From: Novakomyces olei
Lineage: Eukaryota
Direction of reading: 5' to 3'
Length of the DNA: 64,000 nucleotides
Assembly (NCBI GenBank): GCA_016906335.1
Contig: JADEYG010000009.1
Location: 62,001 to 126,000 of the forward strand
Part shown: one piece after another, positions 7,862-24,779 of the stretch
Layout of the letters: every line of letters starts with the position of its first letter
Position numbering within the stretch: the first letter of the stretch is position 1
The notes under the pieces: model-generated
Database searches by the model: none
What the model was told of the DNA's origin: nothing
Seen by the model: only the letters and a program-made list of their open reading frames with translations
Position numbers and translations under genes: made by a program

Positions 7862-9562
7862 TTACAAGCCATCTAAAACCTTCTCCTGTTCAACAATCGA
7901 AGTTTGGCCCGTCTTGTAAAGCAGATCGGCTTCATCTTCCAAGTATTGCTTTCCTTCCAGCACCGCCTTTTCAGGATCCACGAACAAAAGCAAGCAAAAC
8001 CCTAGGATTGTGCAAGGCAGTAAAAATGCAAATGCCATGTTTGTGTTGCCCCCACTCTTATCAATGATAGCCGATGTAATAAACGGGCCAATAAAAGCAC
8101 TCGTCTTCCCGGAAATCGTAAACAGGCTCCAAAACAAAAACATTTTGGGCCGTGGAACCAAATCCGAGAGAAAAGTGTAAGGTAGCTGGTACCATTGGCA
8201 CACAAGCAATCCAAAATATGCCTGATAAGCCCAAATTTCCCCCACATTCTTAAATCCCACGTGATGGGCCCAAATACCGATGAAGCCCCAAACGCAAAGG
8301 ATAACGATGCAGGCCACATTAAATAAAAGTACGGTCTTGGTGTGGAAGCGAAATTTTCTTTGACAGAGCCACATTATGAGCATCCCTGTGCCCTGTGTTC
8401 CAAAAGCCAATATTGTCATATAATTTAATTCAATTATAGAGTAGGAGATAACGCTATTTTGAAGTGTTCCAATCACGGTTACACACGTATTCAAAGAATC
8501 TGACAAGATGAAATAGGCCACGAGATAAATCGAGACGGCCTTGAGCCGTTTTAAATGTTTGATTGCCTGCCAAAGATTTACATAGCCAACCGTAGCAAAT
8601 GTTGTGCCTGGTGGTAACTTTTGCCCGGGTCTTTTTTGTTCCTTCAAGAACCAGGGGATCGCAAAGACTATCCAAATACCTGTTGTATAAGCAATGATAA
8701 CGTTGATGGCATTGGTATTTGTCGCCACATCACGGTTCGCATCTAGAGCAATTAAAATGCCTGCCCCAATGGCGAGTTGCACGACGGGTCCATAAGAAGT
8801 CCAAAGAAAAGCATAGTCTGCTATTTTATTGCGCTCAACCATATCAACCTCCATATACTCTCGTGGGCTCATTCGTCCTTCAACAACAGCCTTTTCATTG
8901 TCCTGCATATGCTTTTGATCACGAACGAGACCGGGCATTGCTGCTAAGAAATACGCGGTAGAATTGTTGAACATTACGTAACCAATTGCGTAAAGGGCAC
9001 ACGCGGCCTGCCAGTCTGCTCCTGTTCGAACTGCTAGCCAAGAAAACCCCACCCCCCACGAAATGACGCTAGTGACAACGCAGATCCATCGCCGCCATGA
9101 GCCATAATCGGCATATGCGCCGATAGTCAGACTGATCATCACCTGAATGGCAAATGAAATTCCCGAAATATCCAGTACAATTGCCGTAACCGGTTTAGGT
9201 GATCCCGCAAATGGGAGAACACATCGACCCGTCGAGCCACATGGGGCGTAGCCGTGAGGACCGCTTCCAACTTGATCGGGATTGTAACCCGCCTGAGCCA
9301 AAATGTTTTGCAGCTGGGACGGAGCATAGTTCCACAGCCCTATTCCCGTATTTCCAAAGTAATACAGATAGTAGCAAATCAATTCTAGTTTTGTCGTTGT
9401 TTTAGGAGGTTCTGAAGTTTTGGGAATGATATTGTCTTCATCTACAAGCGCTTGACCTGACGCATTCGCTTTTGCGTCTCGATCTATGAGAGTTACCACT
9501 TCTCCAGATTGTTGTTTGGACTCTGTGGAGAGCGGTTCAACCAAAGCTTTTGCGTTCTTCAT
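7862..9562 (-). CDS. Atg22-like MFS transporter (amino acid/small amide efflux family), intronless
   Basis: Single ORF with about 12 hydrophobic segments. Atg22-family motifs ISFAIQ, IGAYADYGSWRRW, RPGQKLPPG, YLVAYFILSDSLNT and SGKTSAFIGPFITSAI. Confidence 0.85.
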   Translation of the reverse strand: MKNAKALVEPLSTESKQQSGEVVTLIDRDAKANASGQALVDEDNIIPKTSEPPKTTTKLELICYYLYYFGNTGIGLWNYAPSQLQNILAQAGYNPDQVGSGPHGYAPCGSTGRCVLPFAGSPKPVTAIVLDISGISFAIQVMISLTIGAYADYGSWRRWICVVTSVISWGVGFSWLAVRTGADWQAACALYAIGYVMFNNSTAYFLAAMPGLVRDQKHMQDNEKAVVEGRMSPREYMEVDMVERNKIADYAFLWTSYGPVVQLAIGAGILIALDANRDVATNTNAINVIIAYTTGIWIVFAIPWFLKEQKRPGQKLPPGTTFATVGYVNLWQAIKHLKRLKAVSIYLVAYFILSDSLNTCVTVIGTLQNSVISYSIIELNYMTILAFGTQGTGMLIMWLCQRKFRFHTKTVLLFNVACIVILCVWGFIGIWAHHVGFKNVGEIWAYQAYFGLLVCQWYQLPYTFLSDLVPRPKMFLFWSLFTISGKTSAFIGPFITSAIIDKSGGNTNMAFAFLLPCTILGFCLLLFVDPEKAVLEGKQYLEDEADLLYKTGQTSIVEQEKVLDGL

Positions 9563-9697
9563 AGCCAACCGCCGTTCAAAGAGTGGGAGGGTAACGAGCG
9601 AGTGAGTGCCCGTTATATAAAAAGATTCTGTGCTGCTTTTTCGAAAGCTTAACGTTTATCAATCTACTTTTTATCAGCTTATCGTTCTTGCTGCTAT

Positions 9698-9710
9698 CTC
9701 CGTCGGCTGC
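9698..9710 (+). promoter_or_regulatory. Candidate Zn2Cys6 site CTCCGTCGGCTGC in the transporter/M24 divergent promoter
   Basis: Near-inverted copy at 10004-10016 (gcagccgaagggg) and an identical 10-mer at 13318-13327. It contains the CCG/CGG triplets typical of zinc-cluster sites. Several GATA/TATC cores lie nearby. Confidence 0.4.
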
Positions 9711-10168
9711 ATTCGCGTTCTGACAAGTCATTGACGATATGCCAAATTGGGCTGAGCGGAAGAACAGTATTAGCGATATCGAGTAAGTAGTATTGCGTTT
9801 CCCACATCCAATGATCCACCCGCCACAACAGGGGAGCCATGCGAGCAGCCAATCCTGTGCGGTTTGATAGGTGTCAATGATACTAACTAGTCAATTTATG
9901 CGTTTAACACTTTTCGCTTTAGCACGAAGCAAATTGTGGTTATAGAACAATAGGATTGCCTATTTCAGTACTGTTTTATTATTAGGTCGTCTCGTCCCAC
10001 CTCGCAGCCGAAGGGGCTACACCTTTTATTATATGTACACCTCTAGAATGTGTATCGAATATGATGTACATTAGATACACATGTCACAAGTGATAAGCGC
10101 CTCAACTGGTATCCCACGTATCGAGCACGTATATATCTAAACTACTCGCGGGCCCATAGTCAAGCGTA

Positions 10169-10903
10169 ATGTCTGTAGAAACAGTCGCCAAATGCGCTCT
10201 AGCATGCAATATCAAAGCCTCATTAGACAGCGAACAGTCGGTGGAGATATCGGACGAGCCTCCTCCCGGCTTAATTGAAGCCCAGCGTTTAGCAGTGCGT
10301 GTAGCAGAGCAAATCGTTCATCAAGTCCAGCCCGGTCAAACAGAAAAGGAAACGGTTCGTCAGGCAGACGATTTAATTCGTGAGCTGGGTGGTGCTGGAG
10401 TATGGACTCCCACCGTCGTTGGGTTTGGCATTGGAACACTCAGCTGTTTTCCAACTGACGTGCCGTCGGACCGCCCATTATGGAACATCGATCTGGGTCA
10501 CGTGGACGTCCATCCCATTACAAAAGCGGGATGGTGGGGAGATTGTACGCGGACACTTTACGTGGGCGGTAATCGGCCGCAGGGGAACGCGCTGGCTACT
10601 TTACAACGTATCCACAAACACGTTCTTGCATCGGCAACACCGGGAATGCGGGCTTGTGACCTTTTTGGGGTATTTGCTAAAGAGCTGGCAAAAACGGAAT
10701 ACGTTTTGCTCGACAGGCTACAAAATATCGGGCATTCATTAACTCAGAATTCATCATATGATTATGGCTACCTTGATGCCTATAATGAAACAGTTCTTGA
10801 AGGAGCATGGGCAATTGAGCCTTTCATTGGTAATCATTTGTACGGCGTAAAACTAGAAGACGTTTTATGGTTTGGTCCATCAAAAGTTACAGTGATCGAT
10901 TGA
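10169..10903 (+). CDS. M24-family (pita-bread fold) metallohydrolase, single domain, intronless
   Basis: 244 aa. Dimetal ligands appear in the expected order: VDVHP..WGDCTRT (D, D), IGHSL (H), AIEPF (E), KLEDV (E). There is no N-terminal creatinase/prolidase domain. Confidence 0.85.
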   Translation: MSVETVAKCALACNIKASLDSEQSVEISDEPPPGLIEAQRLAVRVAEQIVHQVQPGQTEKETVRQADDLIRELGGAGVWTPTVVGFGIGTLSCFPTDVPSDRPLWNIDLGHVDVHPITKAGWWGDCTRTLYVGGNRPQGNALATLQRIHKHVLASATPGMRACDLFGVFAKELAKTEYVLLDRLQNIGHSLTQNSSYDYGYLDAYNETVLEGAWAIEPFIGNHLYGVKLEDVLWFGPSKVTVID

Positions 10904-11084
10904 GATAATGAACTACATACCAAAAAAGATTTGAAAGTACCGAACAAAATCTCAGACAATTCCTATATGGCCTTTTATGAATCAGAGTTTCACAGCAAAT
11001 AGGTCACGTTGCGCTTTCCAAAGTAAAGTTCATTGAATAAACAAATTGAGTAAACAAAAGCACGCCGGAAAGCTCCAGTATATC

Positions 11085-12889
11085 TTAATTAATAAAGCTA
11101 GCAAATACATGCCTTATGAATGACTGTTCTGCCCGACGACTAAGAATTTCTCTAGGAGAAAGAGAAGCCTGGTATTTTCGAAAAACTTCGAGTTGAGGAA
11201 TAGTCCGCTTTGCGATGAATGTCCCCTTGTGAACTTGAAGCCAATCCCAAAACCTTGTAAATAATAATTGATAGTGCTCGACTTCAGGCTCTGAGCTTGC
11301 TGTTGAAAGCATTAGGCTTAGCACCGATCCAATTAAAGTCAGCGAATCCAGAGTCCCAATGTACCAAAATCCGTTCAAATGAGGCGTCTCTAAGGCTTCG
11401 AGATACTCTAACGCATTTATGATTCTCTTGTGGAGGGCAGAGCGACATAAATTTTGAATCTCTATTTTATCCTCATTCGCATTATTACACATTATCGTGA
11501 TTCGGCCAAGGGTAAGATTGGCAGCGTGGTAACATACCATTAAGCATGTTAAACCATATATTTCAGTGGAAGCGACGTTTAAACCATTCAACTTTATTCC
11601 CAAATCTTTGTTCCAGGTCGTGAGGCGAATTTGCAGAGGCTTGCAAGACTGCAAGTCAAAATTGACGGAACCGTCAGCGTTTCTAAACGGCCTCGTGGCA
11701 GAACTAAAAAGGTTAACCAAAAATTCAATTAATAAATGATAAAAATCAGATAAAAATATATAACAATATATTCTCTATTCCATTCTTACTAGAATTCTTC
11801 CAAAATCTGAGATATAATCTCGCTCAATTCCGCCAGTTTAAGAAACACCAAATTTTGCGCTCGGCTGGCAAGTGAGACATCCTCCGTTACGCCACTTTGC
11901 ACCAGATCAGATTCTTCCAAATTTCGAACGGCCCAATTAGAAGATGATATATGAGAAGGCGTTCCGTGAAACAAGGCCACCCATTTATCAGCAATATAAA
12001 TTGCCCAAGCCATTCTAATTCGCAATGACTTCTCCCATGCAGGTATAATCCAGGAAGAGCAATCTAGATGCAATCCTACAGCCTGGGCTTGCGCGACCAG
12101 CTGTGCAACCAATGTCCACGGTCGTCCCGTATCTTCCAAAGGTGATAGTAACATATTCAATAAACCTTGAATATCCGCCAATTTTGCACAAGATTTTGTA
12201 GCTGATTCTGCAATTAGCGATTTGCCGATATCCTTTAAGGGGAAGGCACTGGGCCTTTTTTCATTGCTTTCATGATCCCACCAGTCCAGAGCACAAGAAT
12301 ACATCCCGCACAGAGCCAACGGTGTGAAATAATGTCTGGTACGTTGAAACTTTTTTGCCCATATTTTCTCATCAAGAATAGGAAAACTGGGGTGAACGTA
12401 TTTGAAATATAGTTGGTTCAATTGGTCTGCATGAGGGTAAACTGCCTCTTCAATGCGTTTGAGGATATGATGTTTTGCCAACTCATCTTGTTGCGAATTT
12501 GATTGTATAAAAAAGCAAGAGTTTGGGTCGAATCGACGAACTTCTTCCCGCTCAGATAATCTCAGCTGGTCATTTTCAAATCTTATCAGATCAAAAGCGG
12601 CATTGCCAAAAGCACTACTCTGTCCATAAAAGTATGTGTCTTGCACAGAGTCCAAACTGAGGCTTTCGTTGATCCAAAACGTCTGAAATTCTTCGTCCCT
12701 GTCCCGGAAAAGGTCTCCTATCCGATCTTTTCGATCTCGCCACTTGGGTATGAGGGAATCATTTAATTCTAACGCGTCGCATTCGGTACCATGAAACGCG
12801 CACATTACACACGCCACTTCTGCTTCGCGTAAAACGCATCTGAGTTTCCGCCGTCGGCAGGCTGTGCAGGATGTCCATTTTCTAGGCAT
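11085..12889 (-). CDS. Zn2Cys6 transcription factor, Dal81/TamA-like (2 exons)
   Basis: Zinc cluster CTACRRRKLRC-x8-CVMCAFHGTEC. Fungal TF middle homology region YVHPSFPIL and DCSSWIIPAWEKSLRIRMAWAIYIADKWVALFHGTPSHI, which I recognise as Dal81/TamA-family-like. Intron at about 11710-11788. Confidence 0.85.
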
Positions 12890-13273
12890 TTTAATTCGTA
12901 AGACCCCCACTTCGTATCCGCTTGACCTTATCGCTCAGACAACCCACCCTTCCCATGTTCGCGCTTGTCAAAAGATGGAAAACCCTGTCTGTTTCTCGTA
13001 AGGATGCTCATTGTTTTATATTTGGAATTTTTGTCATAAGCTCGGTTTATCTGATAACCGATGGATGGGTGATTGCGTTTGATGCTGTGGTTACTTTTTG
13101 CAAATATCTGATTGAGACGTTCCAAAGCAATCATACCTTGCTATTTTGAGAATTCTGAATAAATTTATTGATGAATCACATTTGAATGTCAAGTGACACT
13201 CTCTTTCTCCACTCTGGAGCAATCAATCAGCACGTTTAAGCCTATTACAAGATGGCTTGTGTGCGATACGCGC

Positions 13274-13296
13274 GATAAACCAATTCTTGGTTTATC
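13274..13296. promoter_or_regulatory. Perfect 10-bp inverted repeat with a GATAA core on each arm
   Basis: GATAAACCAA-ttc-TTGGTTTATC in the TF/amidase divergent promoter. Further TTATC/GATAA cores lie near 12927 and 13047-13057. Confidence 0.5.
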
Positions 13297-13460
13297 TTGC
13301 CTATTTCGGGTTCCTGCCTCCGTCGGCGATTAGATCCCACGGATAGAATCCAAGCAATCTACCCACAAAGTAGGAGATAGCCCACACACCACGCAAATTA
13401 AATTGACGGCTACATTGGCGGCAACTTTAAGGGAGAACACAAAAGTCGCTTTCAATCTGC

Positions 13461-15563
13461 ATGGAGCCGTGGAGCAGTCGGGCTCAGCGAGCACAAAAGC
13501 AATGCATTGAATCAATTGATCCTCAGTTTTTATTAAAGAACATTTCTAGCAAGGACAAAGAAAATGCATTTGAATGCATGTCTCGTCGAGCAAACGAGAC
13601 AATGACGGAACAAGAACAGAACATGACGCTCCTTGACGTGTTTGATTTAACAAATAAGCTTGCAAGCGGGCAAATTACCTCAGAGGCGGTTGTAACGGCG
13701 TTTGCGAAACGAGCAGCCATTGCGCATCAGCTGACGAATTGTCTTACTCAGTTTTTTTACAACGACGGAGCATTGGAGCGAGCACGCCAGCTTGATAAGC
13801 ATTTACGAGAACACAAAAGTGTGGTTGGCCCATTGCACGGGCTTCCAATCAGTGTAAAGGACTGTTTTCATATTGAAGGGACGGAAACCTCTGCCGGATT
13901 TGTTACTTGGTTGGGGACAAAGTCGGTGGAGACTGCTGAACTTGTAAATATTCTTCGCAATGCTGGCGCAATTGTGCTCTGCAAGACTAACAATCCTCAG
14001 TAAGATCAGACCAAACATTCAAAGGAGTGATCTAAAAAATATTAAAACATGATCGAATTGCGCTTTAAAGAACAACTCAATTCGAAATCCATACTATTCC
14101 TTTTAAATATTTAATCTAATAGAAAGATCGCTTTTTTCAATCGAATGCGACAGCAATGCTCATGGACGGACTGTGAATCCTTATAATTTTCGGCTTAGTT
14201 CTGGAGGCTCGTCTGGAGGAGAAGGTGCTTTGATCAGTATGCACGGATCTCCTCTAGGTATTGGAGGGGTAATGAATTGCAAAAGTTCATCAAGCTTATG
14301 AATCGTTGCTTTTATTATTTTGGTTTAAAAATATCATTCTAATTATTAGGACAGCGGTGGATCGATCAGAAACCCAGCGGCGTCATGTGGGATTTATGGA
14401 TTTAAACCAACTTCTGGAAGAATTCCTCTTAAAGGCGCACGTGGCCCAATGGAAGGAAATGAAGCTCACACGGTATCGTCTGGACCAATGGCGTCTAGTC
14501 TCGCTTCCATCGAGATTTTTATGCGTACAGTTCTCGCAGCAAAACCATGGACAACAGATCCAGCATTAGTCGAAATACCCTGGCGGCAATTGCCTGTCGA
14601 TTTACCCGTTATTAAAGTAGGATTGATGGCTCACGACGGCTGTGTCCTGCCTATGCCGCCTATTGGGCGGGCCCTAGACCATTTGGCTTCAAAACTAAGG
14701 CAAAGTGCGCGCTTCGAAGTTGTGGAGTTTGAGACTTTTATGCAGTCTAAAATTAATCTTTTGATTGTGAGATGACTCTTAGTTTATTTATTTATTTATT
14801 TCAACATCTGATTATAAGTTTTAATGAAAATGATTTTCTTTGAATTCTTTTTTCAGTATGAACCTGTCTTTGCTAACAATAAATTAGCGGCGTCTGTTTA
14901 TGCCGGACGGAGGGAAAGACGTTCTCGACCACATTCTCGAATCTGGAGAGCCTATTGTTCCCTTGATTCAGTGGGCCCTAAAATCTCCTAATGCCAAACA
15001 GCTTTCTATGCATGAACTTTGGGATTGGACGCGGCAGCGACAGGAGTTTCAATTTGAATTTTTAAAGCATTGGAAAATGTTAGGCATTGATGTTCTCTTG
15101 TGTCCCTGTGCTCCTTGGCCAGCCGCCATACATGACACCTCGACCGTATGAATCAGATTTTTTATTACTTGGATATGCTTTGACTTTTAGAATTACTTTT
15201 ATTTTGATTTTATCCATATCAATGATTTCTCACTTTTTTAATGATGTAGTATTTTGGATACACGACATTATTCAATGTGCTTGACTACCCTGCAATCGCT
15301 TTCCCCACGGGACTCTTCTCGGACTCTGTCAAAGACAAAAAACCGGAAAGGGCATCGTTTTTATCCGCCGACGACAAAGAAATATATGATCGATGTGAGC
15401 TAATGGTTCTTTTTCCTTTTAGTTTGGATTAAAAAAGAATATTAACACGTCAGATGACCCGAATCTGTTTCACGGTTCACCAATCAGCCTTCAACTGGCG
15501 GCGCCTCGATGGCAGGATGAAAAGCTTTTGCATTGCTTGAAAGATATACTTGATCATTCTTAA
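13461..15563 (+). CDS. Amidase-signature family enzyme (AmdS/acetamidase-like), multi-exon
   Basis: AHQLTNCLT, GPLHGLPISVKD (catalytic Lys), KTNNPQ, SGGSSGGEGALI, G-DSGGSIRNPAA (catalytic Ser), FNVLDYPA and GSPISLQL..RWQDEK. Stop TAA at 15561-15563. Confidence 0.92.
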
Positions 15564-15871: not shown

Positions 15872-17159
15872 TCAGTATGAAATACGATCCCAGTATTGCG
15901 TTTCTTCAGAGCCTTCAATCTGTGAAGAATGTGGAACGTTTTGAAGAATAATTGCACAATCCTCAGGCTGAGCTGTACGGATTATGGCAGTGGTATCGCC
16001 TTTAAAATAATCGACATAGGCAATATTTGGCAATTTACCACATAACTCTTCCAGCATATTTTGAATAGCAGTTTTATTGCTCAAAGGGTCAATATTTTCG
16101 ATCTGGACGAGTACACCGGGCTTAAATTCCAATTTTCGTTTTTTGCTAGTAGCAAAAGGCTGAATTTTAAGCTCGGGACTCTCCTTCCACTCTGCACCAG
16201 TCGTCACTTCAACGTCCATTTCAGTATTGGCTTCTGCCTTGAAACCATTTGTCCCCTTATTTTCTGTATGCATCAGGCGCTTTTCATAGTGTATATCCTC
16301 ACTCATGAGTTCGGCATATTCTCGTTCCCTCTCCTCCCATTCCTGACTTTATGGTCTCGTTAGCTTTTGTAGTATATAATAAACGGTCTTACATAGTGCA
16401 AACGAGCCATCCCGGTTCAGAGACAAGACTACCGCGTTTAGCAATTTCGGACATAACCACGAAAACATAGCCCAGTTTGGAGGTGGTGACTTTTTGTACG
16501 GCGCCGAGATCGACCAGTAATTTATCGGCAAGCGCTGTGCAAAGCTGGACCGGCTTTGAACACAGTGATAACGGAAACGGTTCCTGTCTGTTAAATGCCA
16601 TTCATCATTTTAGTTTTTTGAATTTCAATCTATTAATTTCAATATGATTTTCTCTCGTCATGAAATTTGTATTTTTTCTTGTTTGAAGGCACTTCGTACC
16701 ACGTAAATAGTCCTCGGACCCCAATTTGTTTCCGGCCCTTGCTCAATTACTCTCATATGGTGTTTGTCTGAAGAAAGCGCCAGTTTAACGTATCCTTTGC
16801 CTTTAGAAATCGTATGCTGATGCTCAATCGCGCCCTGAATAAGCGTTTGTGAGGCAAACCCTTCAATTTCTGACAGCAAATCGGAGCATTCTAGTAACAA
16901 GATCACCGCGACGGAAAGATGAACAACTGTAAAGTGTTAGTTTACATCATCACACTTGCAACTTGCAGTCATTATATCCATCTATATTGCGATAGTATTG
17001 TGAAATTTGGCGGTTCAATCCTGCATCAGTCTGGCGGCGGTGTGTGGAAAAAAGAAGCGTTAATGCGGCCAAAATGTATTTCTGTTTAACTGCAAGATCG
17101 GTCGCCTGTTTAGCCGCAAAACTCTGGAGCTCATCATCAGGCCGGCGACGATTGCTCAT
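15872..17159 (-). CDS. pof8: La-related protein LARP7/Pof8-like (telomerase RNP component), 4 exons
   Basis: Degenerate La motif (DGYNDFVHLS), RRM1 (RTIYVEPFP..GYVFVVM..QEWEERE), and a C-terminal xRRM: KPGVLVQIENIDPLSNKTAI..IAYVDYFKGDTTAIIR..GSEETQYWDRI. This closely resembles the Pof8/p65 xRRM. The first intron is GC-AG. Confidence 0.8.
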
Positions 17160-21098: not shown

Positions 21099-24000
21099 AT
21101 GGCCTCGTCCTACTCTGAAAACGAGCCGCCGCCACCACAAGCTTCAGTGTTCGGGCGACCGACGCCGGTGGCTATGAAGCCGCAAACGGATATAGCCGTG
21201 AGCGTACCTGCTGCTACTCCAGATACCACAAATGGGGAACGGAAATCTGTAAAGGATTTGGCTGCTCAGGAACTTGCCCACGATGAGTCTCTGGCTACGG
21301 AAATGTGGAGGATGTATGCAAAGCAAAAGGCACAGCTGCCGAACGGGGCTCGTATGGAGAATCTGAGCTGGCGAATGATGGCCATGTCCCTTCGCAAACA
21401 GGAACACGATCGTCGAAGGTACTTTAGATGGATATACGAAATTATTTTGTTGGGTTTTTGTCAGATTTAGGTTTTTGGAAACAGTTTCTCTTTCATTTGT
21501 TTATTGTTCCTTGATCGTTGTTGGAAATGAACTGCTTTTCGGAGTTTCGGCCTTTTTTTGTTCGTCTTGTTGAGAGTCACTTATGGATCACTAACCTTAT
21601 TAGGGCCTCTTTCAATGCTATTAATGCTTCTACGGAGACCCTGACCGGTTCAGGTGCCCTGTCCGGCTTCAGCGCTAGACCTGCTATACGTGATGGCGGG
21701 TTCTCTGGAGCCGCAGTCGGTGTAGGAAATTTTGGAGATAACGATTTCACGTTTGGGCCTATGCAGTTGGACGACAATATCTCGGATGCTGTTATGTCTC
21801 CTCCATCGGCTACAAATGTACAAGATCGATCCGGCGCCGGTAATAAGGCATTCAACGACCGAAGCGCTGATCGTGATACGATTGGTGCTGCTTTTGCTTC
21901 TGTACCTGCTACTCATGACAAAATGTCAGAGTTCGGATTTGTGCAGCGGCATGTGCGTAAAACTTCGTTTGATGTTGCAAAGGTATGTGTATTCAATTTA
22001 TTTTAAATCTATTTTCTTTTTAATATTTTCACCTCGCGAATCTAATGTCAAGGGCAAAAAACGACGAGCCGAATTTTCTCCACATATGCACGCTATCAAT
22101 TCTATTGTCATACCTCATGATACAGGAAACGACGTGGTAACACCGACAGATCCTCCGTCTTTTCCCCTGCAGACTTCACATCCAAACGCATACCCATATA
22201 ATATAGATCCCTTATCGCTGGACAACGATGTGGGATCTAACCCTTCGAGCTACCAGTCGTTCCAATTCCAAGAATCTCTGCACGACCATGGAGGCTTCCA
22301 ATCGCTTTACAACTCACTAAACAATTCTACTCATTCACAGGCTTTTTCACCAGCGTCAATGGTCTCTTCCGCTATCCAATCGCAAGCGACTACACCTCAT
22401 GCTTATCCAGAGATGAATGAAAGTATTTTCTTTAACGGGTTTGCTGGCAGTTTACCAATCAGAAACTCAAGTCACCAATCACCAGCGGAAAGCAGTTTGT
22501 TTTCACCTGAAGCTTCATCGGAAGTTACACCTTCTTCCGTCTCTTCTTCACACATGACGAACCCTTACCACCACAAACATGCCAGTTCATTCTCAAGTGC
22601 TTCGCATGTAAATCCTACACAGATTTTGAATGGGAGCAATAGTGCCAGAGACGTCAACTCCCTGCAACAGCACCAGCAAAACCTTGTTAAACAGTTTAGG
22701 CTACAAAAGCCCAAAAAGAGTGTTTTTACTTCGGGCGGGGATGATTCAGAGAATGATGATGATGATTCTATGAACAATAGTCTTCAACAATACACAAGTA
22801 ATCACTCAGTACATAGTACAGGTGGCTACAATGCACGAGGTTCCGCTATTCAATCACCTGTTGACCTTGTTGATCAGGGCCATCAGCAATCATCTGCGAT
22901 ATCTCCCGAATACATCCAGTCTCCCCGGAAGAGCAAGCTCGAGGGATTCTATCCTGTAAAATCAGGATCCCAGCAGCAGCAGGCACAGTCGCAAGTGCAG
23001 CCGCACTCACTGGGTTCACAGAATCCTCGGTACGGGACAGCAATGGGAATTGATCTAAGCCGGGCAAAGTTTTCAAATAATACCAATACTAATACTAATA
23101 CTAACTCTGTGAATAATAATGTGAATAATAATGTTAATAATAATAATGCAAATGGAGGATCAACCACACCCGGAGCACACGCTTATTCCTTCTCAAGTTC
23201 TGGGTTTGCCAATTCAAGTGCATCTCACTCGGCAGCTTCTTCATTACAGTATTCTGGAACTAATACTGGCCCCAGTACTGCTTCAACTAGCGCATATAAT
23301 TCATCAGGGCGGCCTCGCAAAGTTACAATTGCAACACCAGACACGGAATACGATGCCTGGCTTTCTACAACTCAGTCTTCTTCGTCTGCTGCTGCGGGAA
23401 TGCTTTCAAAAATCAATTCTTCTTCTAGCCTGAATGGATCTTTGCCTGTTTCATTGGACGATTCTGCCACCCGTGGATCTATGGCAGGGTCGCGTAAAAC
23501 GAGCAGTACTTCTCTTGCCTCGGATTCTGCTGTTGCGCGACGGAAATATGCGTCCTCGGGGAATTCGCCTGTTGCTTCAGGACCCGGAGTGGGTTCAGGA
23601 CCTTCAAATAATGCTCCAATTAATGCTGAAGACATGTTTAGTAAACATGATCGCGCTGGAGGAGCATCAGCTTCCTCCTCCTCTTCTCTAAAAGCCGGAA
23701 ACAATGGATTAGCAGCCGGTCCTGGAGCAGGATCGGTGGTGGGCGGGGTTGGTGCAAATAAATCGGAACTTGGATCCGCCCCGACATGTACAAACTGCCA
23801 TACTCAAACAACTCCACTATGGCGAAGGAACCCGGAAGGTCAGCCGCTTTGTAATGCATGTGGTCTATTTTTAAAGCTGCACGGAGTCGTTCGGCCACTT
23901 TCACTAAAGTCTGATATTATAAAGAAACGAAACCGTGGAGGCCCCTTGTCTTCAACGGGACCAGTTGTGGGAGGAGCAAATACTGCAGGTAGTACTACGA

Positions 24001-24779
24001 ATGCAAGTCTCCCAGGTTCATCAAGGGAAGGTTCTATTGTTTCCCTGAATAGTATGAGCGGCAAGCAGGAGTCTGGAGGGATTGCCAAAAGGTCGAACAG
24101 TTCAACGGCCGGAATGGGTCCCGGAAGCGGATCCGGATCCGGATCCGCTCACGGTCGGCGTCAGAGCTCAGTCTCGTCACGGAACGGTCAGGCGCATACG
24201 GCCGATAGTACACCGACTTACTCTCTCCAATCACCGGGAACTGAGCCTAATGGAGCCAGTTCGGGGATGAGAAGTGGAAGTCTGATTATTGGAGAGGATT
24301 CGTTGCGCACAGATGGAATTCAGCACCTTACAGAGTTTCTTGTAAATTTTGGAAATACTTCGGCTGCCTCTGAAAGGCCTAAAGACTCGAATGCTGGCGA
24401 CGGGTTGACGGCCGGTTCTCTGCATGATAGCACGGAGCTGAGTCCGGAGAAGGATCACAGTAATAGTAGTCGTGGGTTTAATAATGGACTGCACTTCCCG
24501 GACTTATTACAGGACAGCAGCCGAATGGCGGTGGACAGCTCGAGCCCCGCCGACGATCTTATATCAGCTGCCTCGCGCGGAAAGTCTCGTGATTTGTTTT
24601 CCCGCTCTGGCGATTCTCAGGTCGGAGGATCCAACAGGTTAGAGCACCGATTACATCAGCAGCAAGATTCAGGGTACTCTGCTCTTGGGTCCCGCGAGTT
24701 TAATCATATACCGATAAGCAGCAATGACGAAGATCAGCAAGCACATATGAGTGATTGGGACTGGCTGACTACGATCTAG
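21099..24779 (+). CDS. areA: Nitrogen regulatory GATA factor AreA/Nit2/Gaf1 (3 exons)
   Basis: N-terminal [15 protein letters not shown] motif, [21 protein letters not shown] finger [41 protein letters not shown], and C-terminal DWDWLTTI resembling the AreA WEWLTMSL tail. Confidence 0.93.

Follow-up and report, generated by a model that had tools for sequence, protein, structure and literature searches.

The gene cluster

We have analyzed a 64,000-nucleotide stretch of the genome of the fungus Novakomyces olei (assembly GCA_016906335.1, contig JADEYG010000009.1, positions 62,001 to 126,000; hereafter the window, whose own numbering is used throughout), in which four intact open reading frames at 7862..15563 code for an Atg22-family transporter, an M24 metallohydrolase, a Zn2Cys6 transcription factor and an amidase. 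The original prediction had described a nitrogen-scavenging cluster made of two back-to-back divergent pairs, and both the Pfam matches and the joined exon models bear out the genes, their place and this layout: the transporter and M24 genes diverge from one promoter, the factor and amidase genes from another, and the M24 and factor genes are convergent. The features are the following (aa, amino acids; MFS, major facilitator superfamily):

7862..9562, minus strand: Atg22-family MFS transporter, 566 aa, intronless (PF11700, E 4e-108)
9563..10168: divergent promoter 1, 606 bp, six HGATAR sites, four of them at 9656-9699
9698..9707, plus strand: CTCCGTCGGC copy 1, a CCG-N-CGG everted repeat and candidate Zn2Cys6 site
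9956..9966, plus strand: TTGCCTATTTC copy 1, 11 bp, common to both promoters
10169..10903, plus strand: Peptidase_M24 metallohydrolase, 244 aa, intronless, single-domain (PF00557, E 1.5e-18)
11085..11703, minus strand: Zn2Cys6 factor exon 2 (joined model 569 aa without a stop)
11704-11789, minus strand: Zn2Cys6 factor intron, GT-AG joining
11790..12880, minus strand: Zn2Cys6 factor exon 1, six-cysteine cluster at residues 5-34, Fungal_trans domain
12881..13460: divergent promoter 2, 580 bp, six HGATAR sites
13297..13307, plus strand: TTGCCTATTTC copy 2, 11 bp
13318..13327, plus strand: CTCCGTCGGC copy 2, 134 bp upstream of the inferred amidase ATG
13461..15563, plus strand: amidase-signature amidase, 536 aa, five GT-AG introns, no internal stop
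13461-13999, 14127-14268, 14350-14766, 14888-15145, 15250-15394 and 15454-15563, plus strand: amidase exons

The host genome assembly amounts to 14.3 Mb in 15 contigs. The locus is covered by DNA contigs of two of three sequencing runs: one run, which may be the source of the assembly, has it in a single piece, and the other, from a different study, in pieces and with no differences. Since the contigs of two runs from two studies agree, the M24 gene belongs to the fungal chromosome; contamination or an assembly chimera as the source of this bacterial-looking gene is ruled out by the difference-free contigs of the second study.

A single-domain M24 enzyme of bacterial origin

The M24 protein scores 67.8 bits against PF00557 (cut-off 23), which places it in the M24 (pita-bread) superfamily, and its predicted structure is a lone pita-bread domain with a predicted local distance difference test (pLDDT) value of 97.8, for a model built from 78 alignment rows (a model from the 23 close rows only gave 67.8). 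Aligned to the P. furiosus prolidase, the five dimetal ligands are D113, D125, H189, E217 and E230, and all five are kept in 160 of 161 family rows; W79, C93, W122, R128, N186, S190, Y197, W214 and K228 do not vary in any row. In the sequence alignment with 1pv9, T96 and Y197 occupy the columns of prolidase H192 and H291, and none of the 161 rows has a histidine at either position. These second-shell histidines serve in peptide binding and orientation in methionine aminopeptidase (MetAP) and aminopeptidase P. Also missing is the N-terminal creatinase-like domain that brings Xaa-Pro enzymes to ca. 350 aa, the match spanning 1pv9 residues 137-330 only; the relatives listed measure 195-262 aa (in a search restricted to 134-427 aa). 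The NCBIfam equivalog cut-offs are far off (27 against 630 for PepQ, 19.6 against 171 for MetAP-I). Nor is this a member of the EutD/creatinase group, being single-domain, with intact ligands and only 17% identical to EutD; EutD and creatinase are two-domain enzymes that have lost the metal ligands, and EutD is metal-independent. The enzyme is thus an M24 member outside the prolidase and MetAP families, and its residues suggest that it probably acts on a non-peptide substrate. Of the amide- or peptide-like nitrogen source proposed in the original prediction, the peptide-like option is weakened by the replacement of both peptidase histidines throughout the family.

Among the best 120 of 277 protein matches, the named fungal ones come from Cadophora sp. 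DSE1049 (PVH79416.1, 73% identity), Exophiala viscosa (70%) and Hyaloscypha variabilis (72%), and all other named matches are bacterial, at 65-68% (Micromonospora, Propionicimonas, Salinibacterium, Pseudolysinimonas, Kineococcus, Microbacterium, Rubrobacteraceae, Mesorhizobium and others). The closest bacterial relatives, at 60-72% identity, are mostly actinobacterial. A scan of GTDB gave 40 M24 loci at 44-69% identity, 36 actinobacterial and four proteobacterial by title, while a search of the full library indicated a small family, with eight representatives at E <1e-30. A viral collection yielded 28 pattern matches and not one relative. Ten diagnostic residues separate a fungal type, found in eight of those best 120 matches, from the rest: fungal-type rows score 8-10 out of 10 versus 0-3 in the remaining 152.

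The nine rows of the fungal type group into one clade, which has 100/100 support in a careful 32-row tree. This tree omits two long-branch Bifidobacterium rows, the distant rows (the P0131-P0156 set, L030, L032-L034 and L036-L041) and several near-duplicates. In a quick 74-row tree the fungal-type group has a support of 83 (Shimodaira-Hasegawa-like approximate likelihood ratio test) within a 99-supported, mostly actinobacterial clade, with the two Bifidobacterium rows as its sister (support 80). To judge from these trees the gene is almost certainly of bacterial origin, and a single entry into fungi from Actinomycetota would be the simplest reading. The GC content at third codon positions (GC3) of the four cluster genes is 0.41-0.46, and their GC and GC3 match three of the four other window genes compared; there is therefore no sign of recent transfer. 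The copy of H. variabilis (P0020, KAN0099261.1) carries D113G, H115Y, C126Y and R183H on a long branch and looks like a gene in decay. The view of a catabolic locus stands after these analyses, with two aspects that had been overlooked, namely the bacterial origin of the M24 gene and the nucleobase- or riboside-like context described below.

The transporter and the M24 gene form a pair

The transporter matches PF11700 over profile positions 1-480 of 482, with 362.6 bits against a cut-off of 24.1, and belongs to the Atg22 family. A hydropathy scan with a strict threshold gave no more than six segments and was set aside. Within the best 120 of 475 matches, eight close relatives at 55-74% identity are followed by a drop to 40-46%. 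The best match is the E. viscosa protein KAI1621880.1/XP_062667767.1 (74-75%), and the M24 protein of the same fungus is KAI1621881.1/XP_062667768.1, that is, a consecutive accession on a contig of the same size (1,351,285 bp). Equal contig sizes reveal further transporter/M24 pairs: P0004/P0287 (4444), P0005/P0403 (15647), P0122/P0404 (19795) and P0002/P0282 (12568), the last of them not counted as firm because a bacterial-type protein, P0082, also shows 12568. A linked transporter, as deduced from accessions and contig sizes, thus accompanies four of the eight fungal-type M24 clusters, one uncertain. In a tree that uses 35 of the 120 listed matches, the linked transporters make up one 98-supported clade of six rows, and the window copy sits in a 100-supported subclade of nine of the 36 rows; yeast Atg22 is outside the tree sample. 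We are therefore confident that transporter and M24 gene are a conserved unit, and the conserved core of the locus is two genes, not four.

The transporter is the sole PF11700 match found in the host genome (one of two candidates scored), and a canonical Atg22 may be lacking, or introns may have caused it to be missed. A metagenome scan for fungal M24 contigs gave 24 loci, all with a GC content of 58-72%, and none of them matched the transporter, the factor or the amidase.

The placement of the host bears on how far the pair may have spread. Ribosomal protein uL3 matches entry 8esq with 716 bits, 7pzy with 650 and 7olc with 648, and uL4 scores 543 against 8esq, 449 against budding-yeast entries and 414 against 7olc. 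The entry 8ESQ is tied to a paper on S. pombe (PMC9949351), 7OLC to Chaetomium (PMC10191838) and 7PZY to C. albicans (PMC9132455). Nug1 gave no separation between S. pombe (260 bits) and Chaetomium (264), and for CCT3 the taxa were uninformative, so that by two markers, uL3 and uL4, the host appears to be Taphrinomycotina-like. At 74-75% (transporter) and 70% (M24) identity, the pair reaches ca. 1.7 bits per residue against that of E. viscosa; host proteins compared with Chaetomium reach 1.77 (uL3), 1.27 (uL4) and 1.05 (Nug1). Such high identity across distant hosts, together with the patchy range, favours transfer between fungi, and the pair has probably spread over distant ascomycetes in this way. 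The 32-row M24 tree nests the window copy with those of Cadophora and Hyaloscypha (97/93), both Leotiomycetes.

The bacterial operons around the M24 gene

We read the 40 GTDB loci with flanks of 8 kb (34 of them at least 14 kb long) and found a recurrent set of neighbours. LacI regulators and a GATase1-like protein are each present in 36 loci, BtpA in 17 and HAD in 7. There are two kinds of importer, an NMT1-type ABC binding protein (20 loci) and an ECF S component (17), one or the other being present in 37 loci and never both. Among the enzymes are PfkB/ribokinase (24 loci), nitrilase-family (20), ArgE/DapE-type M20 (15) and nucleoside hydrolase (11) proteins. The genes follow two layouts, one of ECF, PfkB and BtpA (17 loci, with a nitrilase in two of them) and the other with NMT1-ABC (20 loci, 17 of them with a nitrilase); examples are L012:1261-8669 and L021:5002-12408, from the set L002-L041. 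Peptide transporter, biosynthetic and resistance families were not seen among the conserved bacterial neighbours scanned. Importers of the NMT1 and ECF kinds take up vitamins and compounds resembling nucleobases. The ribokinase and nucleoside hydrolase of the operons point to a riboside substrate, and by analogy with this context we would slightly favour, over all other options combined, a non-peptide heterocycle or riboside, pyrimidine-like or ribosylated, as the compound on which the M24 enzyme acts.

More distant relatives are found on nine plasmids. In each of the three plasmid regions read, the relative (43% identity) adjoins an amidase of the hydantoinase/carbamoylase family, or else a nitrilase-family gene, along with an ABC binding protein. 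One of them, on a Raoultella plasmid (L083:6067-12330), has nitrilase, glutamine amidotransferase, ABC, M24 and LacI genes between IS5-family transposases, and the operon is therefore mobile in bacteria too.

The Zn2Cys6 factor, the amidase and their promoters

The transcription factor has both PF00172 (21.1 bits vs. a cut-off of 21) and PF04082 (64.1 vs. 23) and an Atlas score of 0.97, and it belongs to the Zn2Cys6 class. The label "Dal81/TamA-type" given to it originally was confirmed by no tool, and the protein search gave no named match; its zinc-cluster pattern resembles that of the TamA/Dal81 family. The host genome has at least three paralogues besides it (35, 32 and 40% identity in partial matches). 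The closest (35%), at L074:1-1940 (G000:C7:802 kb), has no adjacent amidase within the 19 kb read, and its zinc cluster looks more TamA-like; it may be the true wide-domain co-activator. The amidase exons match PF01425 with 92.5 and 75.6 bits (cut-off 27), making this an amidase-signature enzyme, and K133, S208 and S232 have the spacing of its Lys-Ser-Ser triad, as known from fatty acid amide hydrolase (FAAH).

Both promoters had been predicted to carry GATA cores and to share an element, and both statements held. HGATAR sites are enriched in promoter 1 (six, p 0.031) and promoter 2 (six, p 0.0085; 2000 dinucleotide shuffles); when the window is cut into 212 overlapping 600-bp tiles, eight have six or more, and three of these eight are the cluster promoters. 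The shared element, CTCCGTCGGC, has exact copies at 9698 and 13318 and no other within the window (35 copies genome-wide). The CCG-N-CGG that it contains is present exactly once per promoter and eight times in the whole window, and is 136 bp away from the start codon of the transporter and 134 bp away from that inferred for the amidase. Sharing of any 10-mer by both promoters is expected by chance (44% of 3000 shuffles, p 0.44), and sharing of one with two CGG/CCG triplets much less so (0.6% of 3000 shuffles, for a class picked after seeing the element). The 11-mer TTGCCTATTTC is likewise in both promoters, its significance not being established. Altogether, the GATA-rich promoters and the shared CCG-N-CGG are suggestive of a common nitrogen control.

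The cluster is flanked on the left by an Hsp12 gene and on the right by a gene for an xRRM-domain protein (PF19977, La-related; 15872-16348, minus strand), the immediate neighbour of the amidase, and then by what is presumably a Sub2-like helicase. A pyridoxal-dependent decarboxylase (PF00282; 3290-5005, minus strand) lies 2.9 kb to the left of the transporter, past a thioesterase-like gene and Hsp12. An AreA/Gat1-type GATA factor (PF08550 and PF00320) is encoded at about 21100-24779 (plus strand), ca. 5.5 kb beyond the amidase. Its position is probably due to chance, and it is likely the reader of the GATA sites in the two promoters.

A possible pathway and its alternatives

The explanation that we prefer begins with the transporter, which would import a cyclic ureide or amidine resembling a pyrimidine, or the N-riboside of such a compound. 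The dimetal M24 enzyme would then hydrolyse the ring or an N-acyl bond of the imported compound. In the fungus the Atg22-like protein, whose linkage to the M24 gene is observed, would stand in for the bacterial NMT1-ABC or ECF importer, and the amidase would replace the bacterial nitrilase or M20 enzyme by cleaving the ring-opened amide and freeing ammonia or an amine. The Zn2Cys6 factor would induce the transporter and the amidase through CCG-N-CGG, together with an AreA-type GATA factor, under nitrogen limitation. The explanation as a whole (a two-gene core, the amidase as second step, control by the factor and an AreA-type protein) remains tentative, its chances being a little short of even, and we judge with similar reserve that the amidase and the factor belong to the same pathway as the transporter and the M24 enzyme.

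Several of our results weigh against this explanation. Linkage of all four genes, as originally proposed, holds in other fungi for the transporter and the M24 gene and was not found for the factor: no close homologue of it turned up on any linked contig, as 3939 candidates (proteins of 199-636 aa) gave a single match, at 34% and on a 4770-bp contig of unrelated length. Even within the core, Cadophora and Hyaloscypha have the M24 gene and no transporter among the best 120 matches, and the Hyaloscypha enzyme is without D113. The predicted cleavage in two steps finds a counterpart in the bacterial operons, where a nitrilase accompanies half of the 40 loci; an amidase-signature gene is present in 1 of 64 bacterial loci. 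Besides, 15 of the 17 ECF-type loci have neither nitrilase nor M20 within 8 kb, and the second amide-cleaving step is therefore no fixed partner. The GATase1-like protein, one of the commonest bacterial partners, was not found in the host fungal genome; since it is also missing from 4 of the 40 bacterial loci, the M24 enzyme may work without it. Finally, there are other pairs of factor and amidase in the host genome. At G000:C7:2572001-2582000 (L071) and in L072 we observed a paralogue of the factor, an amidase, an NCS1 permease and an Asp/Glu/hydantoin racemase, followed by another amidase, SnoaL, a class III aminotransferase and a cupin. As a paralogue adjoins an amidase elsewhere in the genome, the pair can stand alone, and the host genome is rich in small nitrogen-catabolic modules.

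These last observations lead to the main rival, less probable in our view, in which two unrelated modules abut, a mobile transporter and M24 pair having been inserted beside a resident factor and amidase that serve another amide, with the shared words due to chance or to general nitrogen control. That only the first pair is demonstrably conserved, that its genes are intronless (the factor gene has one intron and the amidase gene five), that a paralogue of the factor is near an amidase, permease and racemase at G000:C7:2572-2580 kb and that sharing of some 10-mer is common by chance would all be expected under this rival, which has more difficulty with the single CCG-N-CGG in each promoter, at matching distances from two ATGs and with only eight in the window, with a transporter and M24 pair that has no regulator of its own here, and with the amidohydrolase in 17 of the 20 bacterial NMT1-type loci. 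It is also conceivable, if quite unlikely, that the M24 protein is an unusual dipeptidase or aminopeptidase and that the transporter, Atg22-like and in the vacuolar or plasma membrane, moves amino acids or small peptides, in what would be a peptide-scavenging system. Xaa-Pro dipeptidases are indeed the best matches in sequence and also the closest solved folds (Z 26.4, root-mean-square deviation 2.1 over 214 aligned residues, template-modelling score 0.82-0.87), a further point against our explanation, ahead of creatinase (Z 24.2), MetAP (23.3), EutD (22.2) and DddP (19.8), with 12-24% identity for all fold matches; the five metal ligands are kept, and the sole PF11700 protein found in the genome could be a general Atg22. 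However, identity to those peptidases is only 18-24%, their N-terminal domain is missing, the two histidines, which have a catalytic role in them, are replaced in every family row, and the bacterial neighbours are NMT1 or ECF importers, ribokinase-type kinases and nucleoside hydrolases, with no peptide transporter family among those scanned. Less probable still, and in our opinion very unlikely, is detoxification, with the M24 enzyme deaminoacylating or opening a soil-bacterial antibiotic of the aminoacyl-nucleoside type, the product of which the MFS protein would export. A nucleoside-related bacterial context combined with an aminopeptidase fold would suit it, and the patchy spread and the decay of one copy fit episodic selection, but the importers, LacI regulators and sugar kinases of the bacterial loci are typical of feeding, the GATA enrichment fits nitrogen control, and biosynthetic or resistance families were lacking among the conserved neighbours scanned.

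A last alternative concerns only the evolutionary history: one ancient transfer from bacteria into an early ascomycete, followed by vertical descent and near-universal loss, with no transfer between fungi. The transporter tree places the window copy outside the other linked copies, as their sister, and an approximately unbiased (AU) test fails to reject a position of the window M24 outside the other fungal-type copies (p 0.217), both of which this history would predict and both of which count against our own account, as does the fact that the two trees do not fix the direction of transfer within fungi. We nevertheless consider it unlikely, given an identity of 70-80% across subphyla, with bits per residue equal to those of uL3 and above those of uL4 and Nug1, the presence of only three named fungal species among the best 120 M24 matches and the nested position of the window copy in the M24 tree.

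Comparison with known systems

The working analogy for a pathway of import, ring opening and amide cleavage is the ectoine system, in which EutD opens a tetrahydropyrimidine ring and EutE then deacylates the product (PMC8739950; PDB 6twj). There too, a pita-bread enzyme (EutD/DoeA) is found beside an importer, a regulator and a deacylase. EutD differs from our single-domain, five-ligand enzyme in its two domains and its length of 389 aa, and no ectoine-type neighbours were seen among the conserved bacterial genes around M24. The dimethylsulfoniopropionate (DMSP) lyase DddP (PMC8163506; PDB 4b28) is another metal-binding M24 protein that is not a peptidase and is present in bacteria and some ascomycetes, with the differences that it has 437 aa with an extra domain, only 13% identity, a Z of 19.8 and another gene context. 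The Xaa-Pro dipeptidases (prolidase, PepE/PepQ) and type I MetAP share the five metal ligands with the cluster enzyme, which has neither their second-shell histidines nor an N-terminal domain.

With regard to the cluster as a whole, the hxn nicotinate cluster of A. nidulans (PMC5746545) similarly groups transporter, enzyme and regulator under nitrogen control, and the horizontally acquired DGD1/DGD2 pair of Saccharomyces (PMC10169451) likewise puts an acquired enzyme next to a Zn2Cys6 factor. Both contain other enzyme families, and substrate, induction and dependence on the regulator are proven for them, whereas for the window cluster they are predictions. TamA and its homologue Dal81 (PMC6494665, PMC10169451) resemble our regulator as Zn2Cys6 and Fungal_trans factors beside nitrogen-catabolic genes. 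TamA is a wide-domain co-activator acting with AreA that can bind DNA too (PMC6494665), and the 569-aa cluster factor belongs to a set of at least four paralogues within its genome. On the bacterial side, the rikA locus of Salmonella (STM3547-STM3550; PMC13432705, a paper of 2026) comes closest: STM3547 has ribose kinase activity, and this PfkB kinase adjoins the same GATase1-like family, in a pathway that is proposed without naming the substrate and with neighbour genes called unstudied. It has a DMT transporter and a phosphotriesterase where the M24 operons have M24 and NMT1 or ECF importers.

The open-access articles searched describe neither the cluster nor the M24 subfamily nor the bacterial operon, and the main text of the E. 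viscosa genome paper (PMC10411609) has no occurrence of "peptidase" or "nucleoside". Small fungal catabolic clusters with a horizontally acquired enzyme are already a known kind, as are non-peptidase M24 proteins (DddP) in some ascomycetes, and this well-known general type limits the surprise. What is new within that literature is a single-domain M24 enzyme without the two histidines, which stems from an unassigned operon of bacteria and has an Atg22-like transporter as its partner in fungi of different subphyla.

Implications

The cluster is a testable lead on an unassigned pathway, with a small and confidently modelled enzyme that is highly conserved from soil actinobacteria to scattered fungi and a bacterial operon that narrows the class of substrate. 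The two-layout operon (LacI, ECF or NMT1-ABC, GATase1-like, BtpA, PfkB, M24, nitrilase, M20, nucleoside hydrolase) is apparently undescribed and merits a study of its own. Identification of its substrate would give an annotation to a subfamily of non-peptidase M24 proteins, to a clade of Atg22-like transporters and to several uncharacterized genes of bacteria, and would provide a further example of a catabolic enzyme that has passed from bacteria into, and spread over, several ascomycete subphyla. In a bolder version, which we regard as doubtful, the undescribed M24 subfamily, from an unassigned bacterial operon of LacI, NMT1 or ECF, GATase1 and M24 genes, would catalyse a novel step by which a pyrimidine nucleoside or base, modified or damaged, is degraded, and fungi would have taken the enzyme alone, rebuilt the pathway with an Atg22-family importer and an amidase, and passed the unit across ascomycete subphyla. 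If this were true, it would provide a substrate for the Atg22-like subfamily and a handle on the GATase1-like (PF07090) and BtpA proteins.

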